DNA from: an uncultured Candidatus Saccharibacteria bacterium
Lineage (GTDB): Bacteria > Patescibacteriota > Minisyncoccia > Phycocordibacterales > JAKFXT01
DNA length: 64,000 nucleotides
Assembly: GCA_964541455.1 (NCBI GenBank)
Contig: CAZIPS010000002.1
Span: 6,326 to 70,325 of the forward strand
Direction: 5' to 3'
The translations under genes and the position numbers were made by a program. Below, one piece after another: positions 1,650 through 59,324 of this stretch (within the stretch, counting starts at the first letter, position 1; each line of letters begins with the position of its first letter). Under the pieces are notes generated by a model that worked only from the letters and a program-made list of their open reading frames with translations, made no database searches and was not told the origin of the DNA.

Positions 1650-1678
1650 TTGCTAAAAGTAGTTTTTTGTTATATAAT
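1650..1678 (+). promoter_or_regulatory. sigma70-like promoter TTGCTA-N17-TATAAT upstream of GC-rich cassette 1
   Basis: TTGCTA at 1650-1655, 17-nt spacer, TATAAT at 1673-1678; spacer contains AGTTTTTTG; 22/29 positions identical to the module at 19618-19646. Confidence 0.4.
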
Positions 1679-1736
1679 AAAGTTCGGTAAGTTTTTTCGA
1701 TTAATTTTTTTGGCCTATGGGCCGAGGAGGTATGGG

Positions 1737-2039
1737 ATGTACAATCCCGACAATGCCAATCCCGACAGGGATACGACCCCGATTGCTCACGTGGAGCGGC
1801 TGGGGGACATCATCCACAGCATGCTCGGGGCGAGGATTGTGTATCGCCCTTGGCAGCTCGCAGGACCTTCTGAGCAGAACGAAATCCTGCTGCAGAAGGC
1901 AGGCGAAATCTGCGTGGTCACCGTGAAAGCGGGAGATCGCCGGCAGGCTTTCGAGGTGAGCAACCTCGGGGCGCAGTTCCTGGCGCTGGTGAAGGTCCTG
2001 AGCCACCAGACCGGGTTCGAGTACCGCGAAGTATTCTGA
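1737..2039 (+). CDS. hypothetical protein, GC-rich cassette 1 (100 aa, MYNPDNANPDRDTTPIAHVERLGDIIHSML...)
   Basis: ATG at 1737 lies 6 nt after GAGGAGG (1724-1730); about 60% GC in a roughly 40% GC neighbourhood; stop lies 16 nt before a hairpin terminator; no family recognised. Confidence 0.55.
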   Translation: MYNPDNANPDRDTTPIAHVERLGDIIHSMLGARIVYRPWQLAGPSEQNEILLQKAGEICVVTVKAGDRRQAFEVSNLGAQFLALVKVLSHQTGFEYREVF

Positions 2040-2054
2040 GGCGGTACTCGGGCG

Positions 2055-2086
2055 AGCGTGCGCAGCGATGCGCACGCTTTTTTTAT
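2055..2086 (+). terminator. intrinsic terminator of cassette 1
   Basis: 9-bp GC stem AGCGTGCGC/GCGCACGCT with 6-nt loop, followed by TTTTTTTATTT; the T-run overlaps the cysS stop codon. Confidence 0.6.
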
Positions 2087-6311: not shown

Positions 6312-6345
6312 CAAAAACCCTCTGTGTACAGAGGGTTTTTGTTTT
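6312..6345. terminator. bidirectional intrinsic terminator between rplI and rpmA
   Basis: AAAACCCTCTGTGTACAGAGGGTTTTT palindrome with A-run before and T-run after. Confidence 0.6.
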
Positions 6346-6700: not shown

Positions 6701-7177
6701 ATGGAGACAACTATAAAGGAAAGTAGGAAAAATAGCAAGGTACCCTTTGGGGAAAGTTTGCTTTTGACCAATAAGCCAAAAAATGGCTTAACAGCAGGCT
6801 TTTTGAGGGTTTCTGAGGAGGTGTATATCGCCCTTATTATCACCTTGGTGGCTTTTTTAGGGTTTGGCCTTGGGAGATTTTCGATGGTGCAAAAAAGCAG
6901 TAGTAAGACCCAAGTCAAGCTTATTCAGGGAGGGGGAGGGGAAGCAGCCCTTGTGGCAGATAAAGGTGTTTCTGTGGTGGATACGGGGACTACAGGAGGG
7001 GAGGTGTCCACTACTACGCTTAGCGCAACAGAAGTGGTGGCTTCAAAGCAGGGGACAAAATATCACTACACATGGTGCCCCGGGGCGTCTAAGATAAGCC
7101 CAAGTAACAAAATTTCTTTTACTTCTGAGGCTGCTGCGATTGTCGCAGGGTATACGAAAGCAAGTAACTGCAAATAA
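6701..7177 (+). CDS. membrane-anchored protein with C-terminal Ada-like Zn-binding-type Cys motif domain
   Basis: 158 aa; one TM helix; Gly/Thr-rich linker; C-terminal YHYTWCPG...NKISFTSEAAAIVAGYTKASNC resembles the Ada N-terminal metal-binding pattern (C-x3-C...F.S..EA..AG(F/Y)..C..C); the N-terminal start is uncertain. Confidence 0.5.
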   Translation: METTIKESRKNSKVPFGESLLLTNKPKNGLTAGFLRVSEEVYIALIITLVAFLGFGLGRFSMVQKSSSKTQVKLIQGGGGEAALVADKGVSVVDTGTTGGEVSTTTLSATEVVASKQGTKYHYTWCPGASKISPSNKISFTSEAAAIVAGYTKASNCK

Positions 7178-7202
7178 GTAGTACTTCATATATACTAAGC
7201 AC

Positions 7203-7802
7203 ATGATTGCACTTGATATAGAAGCAAGCGGAGTAGATTATCAGAAAAATTCGATTATTAGTATCGGAGCACTTGATACTGAACATCCTACCAATCGGTT
7301 TTATGGTGAATGTCGTGTCTGGGAAGGCTCGCATATTTCAGAGGATACTATGGAGTTTCTTCAGATGACTGAAGCACAGTTTCGTGATTCTACTAAACAA
7401 ACTGAAGCCGATCTTTTGCTTACTTTTCTTTCGTGGAGTGAAGGGGTGCGGGACAGAACGTTTTTAGGTCAGAATGTTTCTTTTGATCGAGATTATCTAA
7501 AGGCGGCATGTGATCGAATACATCATGAATGGAATTTTGCGCACCGCACTGTTGATACACATTCACTTTGTTACATGCACATGATTAAGCGAGGACTTAC
7601 TCCGCCTTTTAATGAAGAGCATCATCGTACCGCACTTAATCTCGATAGTATTCTTCTTTATTGTGGGATCCCAGAAGAACCACAGCCACATAATGCACTT
7701 ACCGGTGCACTATCTCACGCTGAAGTGGCACATCGGTTACTCTATGATAAGAAGTTTTTGCCTGAATTTGATCAATTTGAAATTCCTTGGCAGAAGGCGT
7801 AA
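7203..7802 (+). CDS. DEDDh-family 3'-5' exonuclease (DnaQ/oligoribonuclease-like)
   Basis: 199 aa; Exo I motif IALDIEASG, Exo III-like H...D (HNALTGALSHAEVAH). Confidence 0.7.
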   Translation: MIALDIEASGVDYQKNSIISIGALDTEHPTNRFYGECRVWEGSHISEDTMEFLQMTEAQFRDSTKQTEADLLLTFLSWSEGVRDRTFLGQNVSFDRDYLKAACDRIHHEWNFAHRTVDTHSLCYMHMIKRGLTPPFNEEHHRTALNLDSILLYCGIPEEPQPHNALTGALSHAEVAHRLLYDKKFLPEFDQFEIPWQKA

Positions 7803-11213: not shown

Positions 11214-11247
11214 AGTATAAAAAACAGGCAAGCCATTCGGCTTGCCT
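11214..11247 (-). terminator. intrinsic terminator of cassette 2
   Basis: AGGCAAGCC-ATTC-GGCTTGCCT hairpin; on the minus strand it is followed by TTTTTTAT; a second weaker hairpin GGGGAG-TCT-CTCCCC lies at 11184-11198. Confidence 0.6.
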
Positions 11248-11269
11248 TGGTGTGCAGTGTGGCGCGCGT

Positions 11270-11647
11270 TCACCTTCTTGTGCGCGTGGAGCCGTACTCC
11301 ATGGTGTCTTTGAGTAGGTTCCAAAGCAGCTCTTCCGCCCTTTCCATTTCTGGAAGCGTCGGGGAATCGGCGAGAGCGGCACGGAGCGTCCTAATGAGTG
11401 CCATGATGATCTCACTTCTTTCGTTTAACGTGGCGTTCCTAGGGATCTTCCCTACACGCTCCAGTTGTTCCTCGAAGACTGCGAGGGAATCACTTTCACC
11501 ACGCAGAATGATTGAATACATGACGATAAGTCTGCGTGCGTCTCGGTTGTCAGCGGGGACAGTTGTGTGGCCATCCTTTTTCCGGTGTAGCCTGAAAAGG
11601 GCTCCGGTGATGGTCTTGGCATGCTCTATGGTCATGCTCATGGACAT
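11270..11647 (-). CDS. hypothetical protein, GC-rich cassette 2 (125 aa, MSMSMTIEHAKTITGALFRLHRKKDGH...)
   Basis: Minus-strand ATG at 11647 preceded by AGGAG (6-nt spacing); GC-rich; terminator 22 nt past the stop; contains an R-x4-H dipeptide pattern (RKKDGH) but no confident family. Confidence 0.55.
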   Translation of the reverse strand: MSMSMTIEHAKTITGALFRLHRKKDGHTTVPADNRDARRLIVMYSIILRGESDSLAVFEEQLERVGKIPRNATLNERSEIIMALIRTLRAALADSPTLPEMERAEELLWNLLKDTMEYGSTRTRR

Positions 11648-11711
11648 AACGAACTCCTACAGTAAAGTGGGCTGCAGCTTTTATAACACAAAATAAAGGA
11701 AAATGAAGGGG

Positions 11712-19617: not shown

Positions 19618-19646
19618 TTGCTAAAATGGATTTTTTGTCCTATAGT
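19618..19646 (+). promoter_or_regulatory. sigma70-like promoter TTGCTA-N17-TATAGT upstream of GC-rich cassette 3
   Basis: TTGCTAAAA-TGG-ATTTTTTGT-CC-TATAGT; same module as 1650-1678; a GGCGCGA/TCGCGCC hairpin at 19672-19694 lies in the 5'UTR. Confidence 0.4.
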
Positions 19647-19714
19647 GAAATTTGCTGTAAATTTTGGAAGGCGCGACCAATAAAATTCGCGCCACCACGG
19701 AAAAGGAGGGCCGC

Positions 19715-19978
19715 ATGGCCGCTGAAAAGGGCTGTTGTTGGACGCAGGGCGACAATCGTTGTGTTACGCTCTGCGAGGATGGGCACTGCCCAGGGGGGGA
19801 CGTTTGCGTAACGTCCCAGAGGCACAACGTCAACCACGTCGTTGACTACCCCTACCAGATCCTCCAAAGGGTCATGGAAGAGGGGCGGCCGGGACAGAAG
19901 ACGAAACACAGGCATACTGGGACGGGCGACGGAGACCGTTCTGTCTGGCAGGTGGGCGTCCCTGAAGCTTCATCGTGA
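19715..19978 (+). CDS. hypothetical Cys-rich small protein, GC-rich cassette 3 (87 aa, MAAEKGCCWTQGDNRCVTLCEDGHCPGGDVCVT...)
   Basis: ATG at 19715 lies 5 nt after AAGGAGG; 7 Cys in the first 32 residues; no signal peptide; GC-rich; terminator directly after the stop. Confidence 0.5.
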   Translation: MAAEKGCCWTQGDNRCVTLCEDGHCPGGDVCVTSQRHNVNHVVDYPYQILQRVMEEGRPGQKTKHRHTGTGDGDRSVWQVGVPEASS

Positions 19979-19993
19979 ATGCCCTTCGGGCAA

Positions 19994-20022
19994 GGCTGCG
20001 TACCCCGCAGCCTTTTTTATTA
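19994..20022 (+). terminator. intrinsic terminator of cassette 3
   Basis: GGCTGCG-TACCC-CGCAGCC followed by TTTTTTATTATTT; the T-run abuts the aspS stop codon. Confidence 0.6.
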
Positions 20023-41273: not shown

Positions 41274-41305
41274 AAGTAGTATAGCAAAATATAAAACCCG
41301 TCTTC
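41274..41305 (-). terminator. intrinsic terminator of cassette 4
   Basis: AACCCGTC-TTCAC-GACGGGTT hairpin followed (minus strand) by TTTTATATTTTGC. Confidence 0.55.
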
Positions 41306-41341
41306 ACGACGGGTTCCCTGCGGGGCAGGCAGCCTTGGCGC

Positions 41342-41509
41342 TTAGCTGGCGCGGGTATGCCTTTTCTGGTAGCCACCGTGAGGGGCAGGCAGCCCCCCTG
41401 GCGGCGGGTCGCGCGCCTTTGGCGCGGGCGTGGATTCAAACAGAAATACTGGCCCAGAGAATGCTACGTTAAGTACTGTCTCGATGAGGCAGTACATGAG
41501 ATGTTTCAT
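41342..41509 (-). CDS. hypothetical small protein, GC-rich cassette 4 (55 aa, MKHLMYCLIETVLNVAFSGPVFLFESTPAPKARDPPPGGLPAPHGGYQKRHTRAS)
   Basis: Below the ORF-track size cutoff; found by hand: minus-strand ATG at 41509 lies 7 nt after AGGAGG; hydrophobic N-terminal half, Pro/Gly-rich basic C-terminus; terminator 37 nt after the stop; contains the direct repeat GGGGCAGGCAGCC twice. Confidence 0.4.
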   Translation of the reverse strand: MKHLMYCLIETVLNVAFSGPVFLFESTPAPKARDPPPGGLPAPHGGYQKRHTRAS

Positions 41510-56941: not shown

Positions 56942-56969
56942 ATAAAAAAACACCCCGCTTGCGCGGGGT
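56942..56969 (-). terminator. intrinsic terminator of cassette 5
   Basis: CCCCGC-TTGC-GCGGGG hairpin; on the minus strand it is followed by TTTTTTTATA. Confidence 0.55.
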
Positions 56970-56985
56970 AAGCGGGGGTGGCGGA

Positions 56986-57618
56986 TCAGCGTGGTGGCGC
57001 CAGAACAAGCCTGAGGAAATCCTCCATGGTATCGGCGATGAGGCAGCCCATCGCCTCAAGCTGCTCCTTGCTTGGAAAACCGCCGAGGCCGAACTGGGGT
57101 TGCCATTCGCACCCGACGATCACCTTGGGAGGAGGTTCGTCTTCGTTGTCCCGCAAGTTTTCCTTCCGAGCAAGCGCCGTCACGATGTGCAAAAAGTCAT
57201 CAGGGTTGGGCCGAAGGTGGTACTTGCCGGGGTTTTCGAAGTAGTGTGCTGTAAACCAGAAGAGAAAAGTATGGGAGAGTGCCAAGGAGAGCCGCACATT
57301 GCCTGCGTCCTCGATGTCCTTGCGCGGGTCATCATGAAGGAAAAAACTTCCCCGCTCGAGGCCAACGTCCACCACCCCCTTGAACCCAGACAGGGCCCGC
57401 AGGGCGTGATACTGCCATGGGACATGCGTTGGGTCATTGAGAGCATTGATCGGCCCACAAAGGGCCACGCTTCCAAATGCCGCCATGGCATGACTCGAAA
57501 CTAGGTCGAGCTCTTGATGCCTCCAGCGGTAGTGGCCAGTGAGATTGAGGCTCTGCCAGAACTTTTGTACAGCAGCAGCCTTTTCTTGCAACTCTTGCAA
57601 TTCTCCGGGAGCGAACAT
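56986..57618 (-). CDS. hypothetical protein, GC-rich cassette 5 (210 aa, MFAPGELQELQEKAAAVQKFWQSL...)
   Basis: Minus-strand ATG at 57618 preceded by AAGGAA; spans the whole 60%-GC island; terminator 17 nt after the stop; overlapping ORFs in other frames lack translation signals; no family recognised. Confidence 0.55.
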   Translation of the reverse strand: MFAPGELQELQEKAAAVQKFWQSLNLTGHYRWRHQELDLVSSHAMAAFGSVALCGPINALNDPTHVPWQYHALRALSGFKGVVDVGLERGSFFLHDDPRKDIEDAGNVRLSLALSHTFLFWFTAHYFENPGKYHLRPNPDDFLHIVTALARKENLRDNEDEPPPKVIVGCEWQPQFGLGGFPSKEQLEAMGCLIADTMEDFLRLVLAPPR

Positions 57619-57705
57619 CGCTAGTTTCCTTTCATGGGGTCATGGGGGTAATGGGGTACTAAAAGCGAGTTTCACAATAACACGCACTTTAATTTTATCA
57701 AAAAG

Positions 57706-58294: not shown

Positions 58295-58522
58295 TTACTT
58301 TTGCATTAAAGAACTCAACTGCCCTTTGTATTCTTGGAGTACACTCATAACAGCCTGCATCTGTGGAGTACCTTGCTTCATTTTGGCTTCTACTTTTTTT
58401 CCAATTTCTGTAAAAAGTTCAGGATGCTGCTCTACTATATTTAAAATTTGTTCCTGCTGCGCTTCAGGAACTCCTTTCAGTTTACTTTTTATAAGACTGC
58501 GCATTAAGAAATTTTTTAGCAT
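58295..58522 (-). CDS. hypothetical small protein
   Basis: 75 aa; helical and charged; 1-nt gap to the oxidoreductase gene suggests co-transcription. Confidence 0.35.
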   Translation of the reverse strand: MLKNFLMRSLIKSKLKGVPEAQQEQILNIVEQHPELFTEIGKKVEAKMKQGTPQMQAVMSVLQEYKGQLSSLMQK

Positions 58523-58706
58523 GTGTGTATGTTAGCATCCCGTCTACTCCCGCACAATTTAGGAGAAGGTCGTAGTTATTAACAGGTGACTTTTCAAAAT
58601 GGATAAAATCTATTATACTCTACTTACAAGCTAAACTAGGTCGGAAAAATAGTTAGCTCGAAGTGTGTCTGTAACAAAAGGCTATCGAACTTTTGTAATA
58701 GACCGG

Positions 58707-58745
58707 CAAAAACCCGAAAGAAATATCTTTCGGGTTTTTGCTTTT
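58707..58745. terminator. bidirectional intrinsic terminator
   Basis: AAAAACCCGAAAGA-AATA-TCTTTCGGGTTTTTGCTTTT: 9-bp perfect stem flanked by an A-run and a T-run. Confidence 0.6.
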
Positions 58746-58781
58746 AAAATCAAAAAGGAGATAAGGCAGTAAATGCAAAAT

Positions 58782-58810
58782 TTGACTTTATATAATAAGT
58801 AAGTTATAAT
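58782..58810 (+). promoter_or_regulatory. consensus sigma70 promoter TTGACT-N17-TATAAT upstream of cassette 6
   Basis: TTGACT 58782-58787, 17-nt spacer, TATAAT 58805-58810; about 29 nt upstream of the cassette 6 ATG. Confidence 0.5.
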
Positions 58811-58839
58811 TATCCTCAGGCAATTTCAGGAGATTTTTT

Positions 58840-59055
58840 ATGGACTTTTGTCCAGCATGCGGTGGGCTTCTCAAGGAGACCCACCTCTCAGGAAACCTCT
58901 ACGGGTTTTCTCGGCGTGATGCATACAAGTGCAATGACTGCAGCCTTGTCTTGGCACGCGCTAACGGCGGGGCGGTACACTCGGTCACCCCCATCGCACC
59001 AAATGCGGTGGTGATCGAGGGGTACAAGTTGGGGCTCCGTCTCCCACAGGTTTAG
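58840..59055 (+). CDS. hypothetical zinc-ribbon small protein, GC-rich cassette 6 (71 aa)
   Basis: ATG at 58840 lies 7 nt after AGGAG; CPACGG ... CNDC (C-x2-C-x23-C-x2-C) zinc-ribbon pattern; GC-rich; terminator 6 nt after the stop. Confidence 0.55.
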   Translation: MDFCPACGGLLKETHLSGNLYGFSRRDAYKCNDCSLVLARANGGAVHSVTPIAPNAVVIEGYKLGLRLPQV

Positions 59056-59061
59056 TATCAC

Positions 59062-59094
59062 CCCGGGTCGGAAGACCCGGGTGTTTCTTTTTAT
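59062..59094 (+). terminator. intrinsic terminator of cassette 6
   Basis: CCCGGGTC-GGAA-GACCCGGG followed by TGTTTCTTTTTAT; overlaps the atpC stop codon. Confidence 0.6.
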
Positions 59095-59324
59095 ACGAGT
59101 ACCAGAACGCTTTCTTTTGATACTTCAAGCACTCCTTTATTAATTGGAAATGTTTCATTTCCCCCTACCCCACGTACAGTCACTACCCCACTGCGTAAAG
59201 CAGAAACTAAAGGTATATGGTTTTTGAGAATAGTCATTTCTCCTTCACTCCCTGGAAGCGTGACTGAAGTAACTTCGCCATGGAAGAGGACGTCACTAAC
59301 TGAAGCAATGGTGAGAGTGAACAT
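59091..59324 (-). CDS. atpC: F0F1 ATP synthase subunit epsilon (short form)
   Basis: 77 aa; N-terminal beta-sandwich (LTIASVSDVLFHGEVTSVTLPGSEGEMTILKNHIPL); last gene of the atp operon. Confidence 0.8.
   Translation of the reverse strand: MFTLTIASVSDVLFHGEVTSVTLPGSEGEMTILKNHIPLVSALRSGVVTVRGVGGNETFPINKGVLEVSKESVLVLV

Follow-up and report, generated by a model that had tools for sequence, protein, structure and literature searches.

The 64,000-nucleotide (nt) window analysed here (positions 6,326 to 70,325 of contig CAZIPS010000002.1, GenBank assembly GCA_964541455.1, from an uncultured Candidatus Saccharibacteria bacterium) contains, at the end of its atp operon, a compact cassette (58782-59092) built around orf71, a 71-codon open reading frame (ORF) for a putative small zinc-ribbon protein. 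This cassette is probably a genuine and natural single-gene unit of moron-like architecture, which was laterally acquired by this lineage of Patescibacteria and sits in a variable slot of the chromosome. A moron-like, foreign unit is proposed because the GC content of the gene is deviant, its Shine-Dalgarno (SD) motif is strong, it is absent from 80 related atpD loci, and the slot that it occupies varies between relatives. Judged from these sequence features, orf71 was most likely gained horizontally. A preliminary description made from the sequence alone had proposed a non-native-looking, autonomous cassette for a small zinc-ribbon protein, and this proposal is supported by the GC content at third codon positions (GC3), by the SD motif, and by the absence of the gene from relatives.

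All elements of a complete transcription unit are present on the plus strand in the proper order: promoter, SD motif, start codon, ORF, and terminator. The sigma-70-type promoter (58782-58810) consists of TTGACT at 58782-58787, a spacer of 17 nt, and TATAAT at 58805-58810. It had been described as a perfect consensus; the TTGACT-N17-TATAAT arrangement is indeed there, but it matches the consensus at 11 of 12 positions. Two such 11/12 matches occur in the window on both strands, as compared to 2.1 ± 1.5 in shuffled sequences, and the promoter on its own is therefore not rare and lies within chance expectation. The combination is more telling: a promoter with at least 10 of 12 matches followed by an SD motif and an ATG is seen at only three places over 128 kb of strand, and two of these three are GC-rich cassettes. 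Transcription would start near 58817-58818, which leaves a 5' untranslated region (UTR) of about 22 nt with the SD sequence AGGAG (58828-58832) 7 nt before the ATG at 58840. The ORF itself (58840-59055) comprises 71 codons and a TAG stop (59053-59055) and encodes the protein MDFCPACGGLLKETHLSGNLYGFSRRDAYKCNDCSLVLARANGGAVHSVTPIAPNAVVIEGYKLGLRLPQV, which includes the peptides ETHLSGNLYGFSR and ANGGAVHSVTPIAPNAVVIEGYK. The AGGAG-N7-ATG arrangement and the 71-amino acid (aa) frame with CPAC and CNDC motifs were thus confirmed at 58828-59055.

The intrinsic terminator of orf71 (59062-59092) begins 6 nt past the stop codon with an 8-bp stem (59062-59081), in which seven of the eight pairs are G-C and which is closed by a 4-nt loop, and continues into the U-rich tail TGTTTCTTTT. 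The final T's of this tail (59091-59092) are the complement of the TAA stop codon of atpC (59091-59093, minus strand). The earlier statement that an 8-bp GC hairpin overlaps the atpC stop codon thus has to be modified, as the hairpin exists but only the U-tract, and not the hairpin itself, reaches the stop. The terminator is unidirectional, since no U-tract follows it on the minus strand. On the other side of the cassette, a strong bidirectional terminator had been noted (at 58707-58745), and it proved to be a perfect 16-bp palindrome (58706-58741): its two arms of 16 nt (58706-58721, GCAAAAACCCGAAAGA; 58726-58741, TCTTTCGGGTTTTTGC) are 100 % complementary, are separated by a 4-nt loop, and have an A-run upstream and a T-run downstream. 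This structure should insulate the upstream side of the cassette and is likely to be the true end of minus-strand read-through from the atp operon. The unusually long intergenic region of about 320 bp mentioned in the preliminary description measures 317 nt from the start of p75, a gene for a 75-aa protein, at 58522 to the ATG of orf71; the full spacer between atpC and p75 is 568 nt. From their arrangement, promoter, SD motif, ORF, and terminator appear to make up a self-sufficient monocistronic unit.

The gene clearly stands out in composition. Its GC content is 0.58 and its GC3 is 0.67, as compared to 0.43 for the genome (42.8 % for the window) and a GC3 of 0.31-0.44 for native genes. The signals of the cassette had also been said to be unlike native ones, which holds true: an upstream motif of the SD type is found in none of the 51 long native ORFs of the window (0/51). 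A -10-like hexamer (TATAAT, TATACT, or TAGAAT) that ends 4-14 nt ahead of the start codon is present in 30 of these 51 ORFs against a background of 21 %. Native genes look leaderless because they lack SD motifs and carry -10-like hexamers close to their starts, and leaderless mRNAs thus seem to be the main type in this species. With its leader and SD motif, orf71 is an exception in the genome. Over the 80 related loci, a clade-wide link between SD motifs and high GC3 was not significant (7/24 versus 152/808). A literature search on leaderless and SD usage in bacteria of the candidate phyla radiation (CPR), and on the protein ZifS discussed below, yielded nothing directly relevant.

The cassette is flanked by the atp operon on one side and by p75, a flavodoxin-like gene, and ychF on the other. 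Related loci were collected from genome contigs with AtpD as the query; all relatives in the resulting set of 80 atpD loci share at most 78 % AtpD identity with the window, and these AtpD relatives mark it as part of a Patescibacteria (CPR) genome near Paceibacteria, Nomurabacteria, and Yonathbacteria. No match to the element was obtained in these 80 loci with tblastn, blastn, or nhmmer. A homologue of native GC content at the syntenic position, which had been named as the observation that would speak against a foreign origin, was sought in the same set, and no homologue of any GC content was present. Among the relatives examined, the order atpC...p75-flavodoxin-like gene(-ychF) is kept only in L010, L011, and L015. 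In these three, the spacer between atpC and p75 is about 510-520 nt and carries in each case a different ORF, mutually unrelated and on the atp strand; in the window, the 568-nt spacer carries orf71 on the strand opposite to atp. The slot between atpC and p75 is a hot spot of turnover. The next gap but one differs as well: the flavodoxin-like gene and ychF are 1561 nt apart in the window versus 208-234 nt in L010 and L015, and the extra DNA holds the GC-rich orf210 and a gene for a 266-aa membrane protein, both inserted relative to these two loci.

The neighbouring atpC gene (59091-59324, minus strand) encodes an ATP synthase epsilon subunit of only 77 aa, made up of the beta-sandwich domain PF02823 alone and without the C-terminal helical inhibitory domain. 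A functional link between orf71 and this truncated AtpC was considered and rejected, as a short epsilon subunit (78-85 aa) is general in relatives that do not have orf71; a short ORF of this size directly follows atpD in the majority of the 15 most closely related loci that were inspected. A protein search with AtpC returned no cluster but its own, and a metagenome scan with the same query gave, among the matches listed, only distant relatives (35-55 %).

No homologue of orf71 was detected among about 15 billion predicted proteins, as only the protein itself was returned. This search combined a word-indexed search over 5.8e9 clusters with a full HMMER search over 1.84e9 representatives. Two weak matches, P0009 and P0010, were dismissed as spurious, since both are Cys-free repeat proteins. 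Searches of phage, plasmid, and IMG/VR collections were likewise negative for orf71, and blastp revealed no similarity between the proteins of the GC-rich cassettes of the window.

The cassette is natural, neither engineered nor an assembly artefact, because it is present in independent assemblies together with ordinary strain polymorphism. The 71-aa protein recurs unchanged, and in the same place, on six contigs that derive from several independent metagenome assemblies (Logan DRR685535; ENA ERZ724528, ERZ724549, and ERZ28655916; JGI 3300045348). Of these contigs, three match the window at 100 % identity, and two others, at 96.4 % and 97.1 %, represent strain variants. Within orf71, the strains differ at only two positions, both of them synonymous third-position changes in L003; orf71 thus shows 0 and 2 differences per 216 nt, while neighbouring genes differ by up to 3-5 %. 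Three further contigs of strain variants (L100, L101, and L102; 95-98 %, with variant orf210 alleles) end at window positions 58533-58569, short of the cassette. All three break off inside a stretch of 40 nt, immediately upstream of p75 and at the edge of the spacer that holds orf71, which could reflect variability of the slot at the strain level or simply low coverage.

The codon-position profile of orf71 (GC1/GC2/GC3 of 0.61/0.46/0.67, with G at 0.36 of first codon positions) is typical of real genes. The mirror antisense frame has the same codon-position periodicity, and the assignment of the strand therefore rests on promoter, SD motif, and terminator. The encoded protein has Cys residues at positions 4, 7, 31, and 34, giving the pattern CxxC-x23-CxxC. 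The first zinc knuckle, CPAC (residues 4-7; 58849-58860, plus strand), is of the CPxCG type, and the second is CNDC (residues 31-34; 58930-58941, plus strand). In residue shuffling, four Cys in 71 residues form CxxC-x15-30-CxxC with p = 7.4e-4. The looser pattern CxxC-x(10-35)-CxxC occurs only three times in the six frames of the window, and the other two occurrences belong to the DnaJ zinc finger. With two CxxC knuckles at a spacing within about 15-30 residues, the protein conforms, as far as its sequence can tell, to the C4 zinc-ribbon motif, and its N-terminus MDFCPACGGLL (pattern MxFCPxCGxxL) is an archetypal zinc-ribbon opening. In a low-confidence, single-sequence AlphaFold model, the knuckles are flanked by beta-strands (residues 10-14, 28-31, and 37-39), with predicted disorder over residues 42-71.

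A search of families of anti-sigma factors, defence proteins, and transcription-factor-like zinc ribbons, as had been advised, gave nothing above threshold in Pfam, NCBIfam, PHROGs, or PADLOC and did not assign orf71 to a functional class. None of the curated zinc-ribbon profiles of Pfam or NCBIfam matched above threshold: PF13453, PF02150, PF14803, and PF09723 all had E ≥ 0.1, PF02150 covering residues 1-11 only, at 13 bits against a cutoff of 25.2, while TFS4 of NCBIfam had E = 0.19. PHROGs contained no match for orf71 or its neighbours, and no family of the PADLOC anti-phage defence models matched orf71 at E ≤ 1. The top matches in Foldseek and in the PDB were the N-terminal zinc ribbons of RPB9, TFS4, and C11, Nudix, and the small zinc-finger protein ZifS, none of them significant (Foldseek E of about 1).

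Several individual families could be discarded. A ZAS-type anti-sigma factor was rejected because orf71, with His at 15 and 47 and Cys at 4, 7, 31, and 34, has no H-x3-C-x2-C motif. A C2H2 zinc finger was rejected as well: C31-x2-C34-x12-H47 is present, and no second His follows. Matches in the PDB to designed C2H2 arrays are weak (E = 0.005, summed over repeats) and rest on CPxCG and YKCxxC only. Membership of the TFS/RPB9/RNA polymerase subunit M group was discarded since four Cys leave no room for a second ribbon. The resemblance to the N-terminal ribbon of RNA polymerase subunit M, RPB9, TFS, and TFS4 (7oqy_Y, 3qt1_I), and to ZifS of Thermus thermophilus (8yoz), nevertheless comprises the opening MxFCPxCGxxL, and orf71 shares with free-standing C4 ribbons, RPB9, TFS4, and ZifS a second CxxC after about 20-25 residues and predicted flanking strands. 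RPB9, TFS4, and ZifS are also its top matches in both sequence and fold, all of them below threshold. In contrast to TFS and RPB9, orf71 has no C-terminal ribbon with an acidic hairpin; disorder is predicted for its 30 C-terminal residues. Zn_ribbon_IS1595 (PF12760), the Pfam family that matches best, is the N-terminal ribbon of a transposase and also falls below its cutoff; unlike such elements, orf71 has no transposase domain, inverted repeats, or insertion sequence context.

In a comparison with phage morons (e.g., gene 15 of HK97), as defined in PMC3594210, the likeness lies in the organization. As far as its sequence goes, orf71 is a single gene that has a sigma-70-type promoter and an intrinsic terminator of its own, it deviates from its neighbours (GC3 of 0.31-0.44) in GC content (0.58) and GC3 (0.67), and it is an extra gene between genes of conserved order, absent from the relatives that keep this order. 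It differs from a moron in that it lies outside a phage or prophage: its flanks are chromosomal and no PHROGs matches occur nearby. The gene is for that reason called moron-like rather than a moron.

From these elements, the following scheme can be drawn. The promoter, which appears to be a strong one of the sigma-70 type, would fire toward the 3' end of atpC and give rise to a leadered mRNA of about 275 nt, GC-rich and folded, with a consensus SD sequence. Transcription would end near 59090, at the intrinsic terminator of the cassette against the atpC stop codon. The product would be a 71-residue orphan protein, the first approximately 40 residues of which form a C4 zinc ribbon (CPAC-x23-CNDC) and the last approximately 30 a disordered tail. 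By analogy with its fold class, it is probably a binding or regulatory protein that docks onto a larger partner via the ribbon and uses the tail as effector or for contact; the partner would most likely be nucleic acid or the machinery of transcription/translation. Should the partner be RNA polymerase, the ribosome, or the ATP synthase, a core machine would be under the control of a lineage-specific regulator.

The position of the cassette suggests a second layer. Transcripts of the atp operon probably run antisense through it, as the next canonical terminator on the minus strand is that at 58741-58706. Read-through to this point would be fully antisense to the orf71 mRNA; convergent transcription could couple the two units, and the orf71 promoter could modulate atp transcription or be modulated by it. 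In this respect the locus resembles excludon-type units and units with overlapping 3' UTRs: a putatively strong promoter is aimed at the 3' end of an operon, the only canonical terminator of that operon lies beyond the cassette, and the transcripts would overlap over about 350 nt, as deduced from the terminator positions. It differs from them in that the antisense partner also holds a well-formed coding gene.

A number of observations weigh against a laterally acquired zinc-ribbon gene. The promoter and the UTR are AT-rich like the host, so that acquisition of the gene together with its own signals is not supported. No donor lineage was found, nor was a mobile-element boundary, an integrase, or a convincing direct or inverted repeat on the flanks of the cassette; two AT-rich stretches of 15 nt, at 58783 and 59084, agree at 10 of 15 positions and were discarded as a repeat, the similarity being probably due to chance. 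The best Pfam match, to PF12760 over residues 4-35, scores 18.3 bits (E = 0.0023) as compared to a gathering cutoff of 25.4. The AlphaFold model has a mean predicted local distance difference test score (pLDDT) of 50.7, which drops below 50 for residues 42-71. An open frame of 71 codons is not improbable at 58 % GC, and the antisense frames are open for 42-57 codons. The strain data amount to only two substitutions in the ORF. The binding role, finally, was inferred from the fold class only.

The strongest of the competing explanations, although an improbable one, starts from the RNA. It holds that the product is mainly, or also, a strongly transcribed, structured convergent RNA of about 275 nt, antisense to a read-through 3' UTR of the atp operon, with the ORF being incidental or the RNA bifunctional; such an RNA could act by transcriptional interference or by formation of an RNA duplex. 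The folding energies fit this idea. Relative to dinucleotide shuffles, the plus strand is more structured than expected for both the transcript (z = -5.1) and the ORF alone (z = -3.5), while the minus strand reaches -1.8, and relative to synonymous-codon shuffles the ORF still has z = -2.65, its energy being attained by 1 in 150 permutations. The main contributor to the excess is a predicted, interrupted hairpin of 16 bp in the 3' half of the ORF (58980-59019, plus strand; CUCGGUCACC...AUCGCA / UGCGGU GGUGAUCGAG); other helices are predicted at 58890-58911 and 58943-58973. The three substitutions of L003 in the transcript spare the pairing, as they are either unpaired or turn a pair into G-U. 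In addition, structured RNAs in AT-rich genomes typically form GC-rich islands, no protein homologue exists among the approximately 15 billion proteins searched, and no canonical minus-strand terminator lies between atpC and 58741, so that the atp transcript probably overlaps the element. An RNA-only explanation, however, leaves the codon periodicity, the placement of SD motif and ATG, and the CPxCG...CxxC arrangement (p of about 7e-4) unaccounted for. Nor does the body of the element (58817-59060) match any Rfam family even at E ≤ 10, and the neighbouring orf210, of the same GC class, shows no excess structure (z of about 0). Known RNA genes of the kinds that often underlie such islands (RNase P RNA, tmRNA, SRP RNA, and 6S RNA) could be dismissed, as Rfam, at both gathering and E-value thresholds, and ARAGORN give nothing over any of the islands; in the entire window they report only one tRNA-Pro. 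Taking coding and folding evidence together, orf71 is probably a coding mRNA with a secondary structure that was selected for stability.

Somewhat less credible still is the view that the cassette is a neutral relic, that is, a foreign GC-rich fragment in a tolerant slot, with fortuitous or decaying ORF and signals and without function. It would fit a species-restricted ORFan such as orf71, a slot of which the content turns over between relatives, and a promoter that at 11/12 lies within chance expectation, as well as the neighbouring ORFan orf210, which evolves fast and has substitutions at all codon positions. An intact set of promoter, SD motif, ATG, ORF, and terminator, correctly ordered and spaced, is not what such a relic would look like, and neither is an ORF of 216 nt with 0 and 2 (synonymous) changes next to genes that differ by up to 3-5 %, or a nonrandom arrangement of Cys residues. 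Moreover, CPR genomes are small and streamlined, and dead DNA is not expected to persist in them. An assembly chimera, a contamination, or an engineered or synthetic insert, which the near-consensus "textbook" signals and the sharp GC steps at the borders of the cassette might bring to mind, is effectively refuted and of negligible probability, as both junctions were recovered across projects and assemblers, including in the 96-97 % variants that are polymorphic in and around the cassette.

A laterally acquired, moron-like gene unit thus being the preferred explanation, it may be asked whether orf71 stands alone. At least four cassettes can be recognized in the window, at 1650-2080, 19618-20020, 56951-57701, and 58782-59092. 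They share a high GC content, an upstream SD motif, and bounds formed by a promoter and a terminator, and some have an unusually structured mRNA. The two cassette genes for which homologues were sought, orf71 and orf210, proved to be species-specific ORFans. It is conceivable, although doubtful at present, that orf71 is one of a set of chromosomal moron-like cassettes between housekeeping genes. Such a set would point to a separate way in which CPR bacteria gain genes, for example from a GC-richer host or its viruses, or to a regulon with its own mode of translation, and the structured mRNAs of the cassettes might themselves act at the RNA level.

Orphan genes for small zinc-ribbon proteins are common and usually uncharacterised, and the interest of orf71 lies in its context. 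Together with the few genes similar to it, it combines textbook signals with a GC3 that is 25-35 points above that of the host, which makes these genes recognisable markers of recent gene gain in a lineage in which horizontal acquisition and host interaction are poorly understood. The cassettes are also convenient test cases for the translation of SD-led versus leaderless mRNAs in CPR bacteria.

The individual cassettes differ in detail. The one at 1650-2085 (plus strand) is located between dnaB and cysS and has the promoter TTGCTA-17-TATAAT, the SD sequence GAGGAGG, a 100-aa ORF (1737-2039) with a GC3 of 0.77-0.78 and no family match, and a terminator of 11 bp (2054-2079); other assemblies contain this cassette as well. 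Its RNA has z values of -5.9 to -8 relative to dinucleotide shuffles and of -2.4 relative to synonymous shuffles. The cassette at 19618-20020 (plus strand), between scpA and aspS, carries TTGCTA-17-TATAGT, a promoter closely resembling that at 1650, followed by the SD sequence AAGGAGG, a Cys/His-rich ORF of 87 aa (19715-19978) without a family match, and a terminator near 19991-20018. The orf210 cassette (56951-57701, minus strand) consists of a promoter-like sequence (57701-57674), the SD-like sequence AAAGGAAA, the ORF (56986-57618; GC content of 0.57), and a terminator (56970-56951); orf210 is restricted to the species and evolves fast from strain to strain, changing at all three codon positions. 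A possible further member of this class is a moderately GC-rich ORF of 125 aa (11270-11647; GC3 of 0.62) in the region 11226-11650 (minus strand), behind which lies a 9-bp terminator (11247-11226).

A comparable unit was seen outside the window, in locus L070 of a low-GC member of the Patescibacteria, about 1.6 kb from atpD (6993-7238, minus strand). It has TTGACT...TACTCT, the SD sequence CAGGAG, an 81-aa ORF with a GC content of 0.58 as compared to a median GC3 of 0.36 for the locus, and a hairpin terminator; its sequence is unrelated to that of orf71.

Two other parts of the window may give rise to RNA. Between a uracil-DNA-glycosylase-like and an MGMT-like gene lies an island of 74 % GC (41281-41490) without a convincing ORF, in which GGGGCAGGCAGCC occurs twice; it has a folding z of -3.1 and no Rfam match and is a candidate structured RNA. 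The other is located between p75 and the orf71 cassette. There, a stretch of 153 nt (58574-58726) is 100 % identical in strain variants of which the flanks differ, and three hairpins on the plus strand (58626-58750; z = -7.9) end in the bidirectional terminator and are preceded by a weak promoter-like sequence (58591-58619; 9/12). The region 58574-58750 has a sub-threshold match to the Rfam family His_leader (E = 0.011) and may represent a small RNA or else a regulatory leader.

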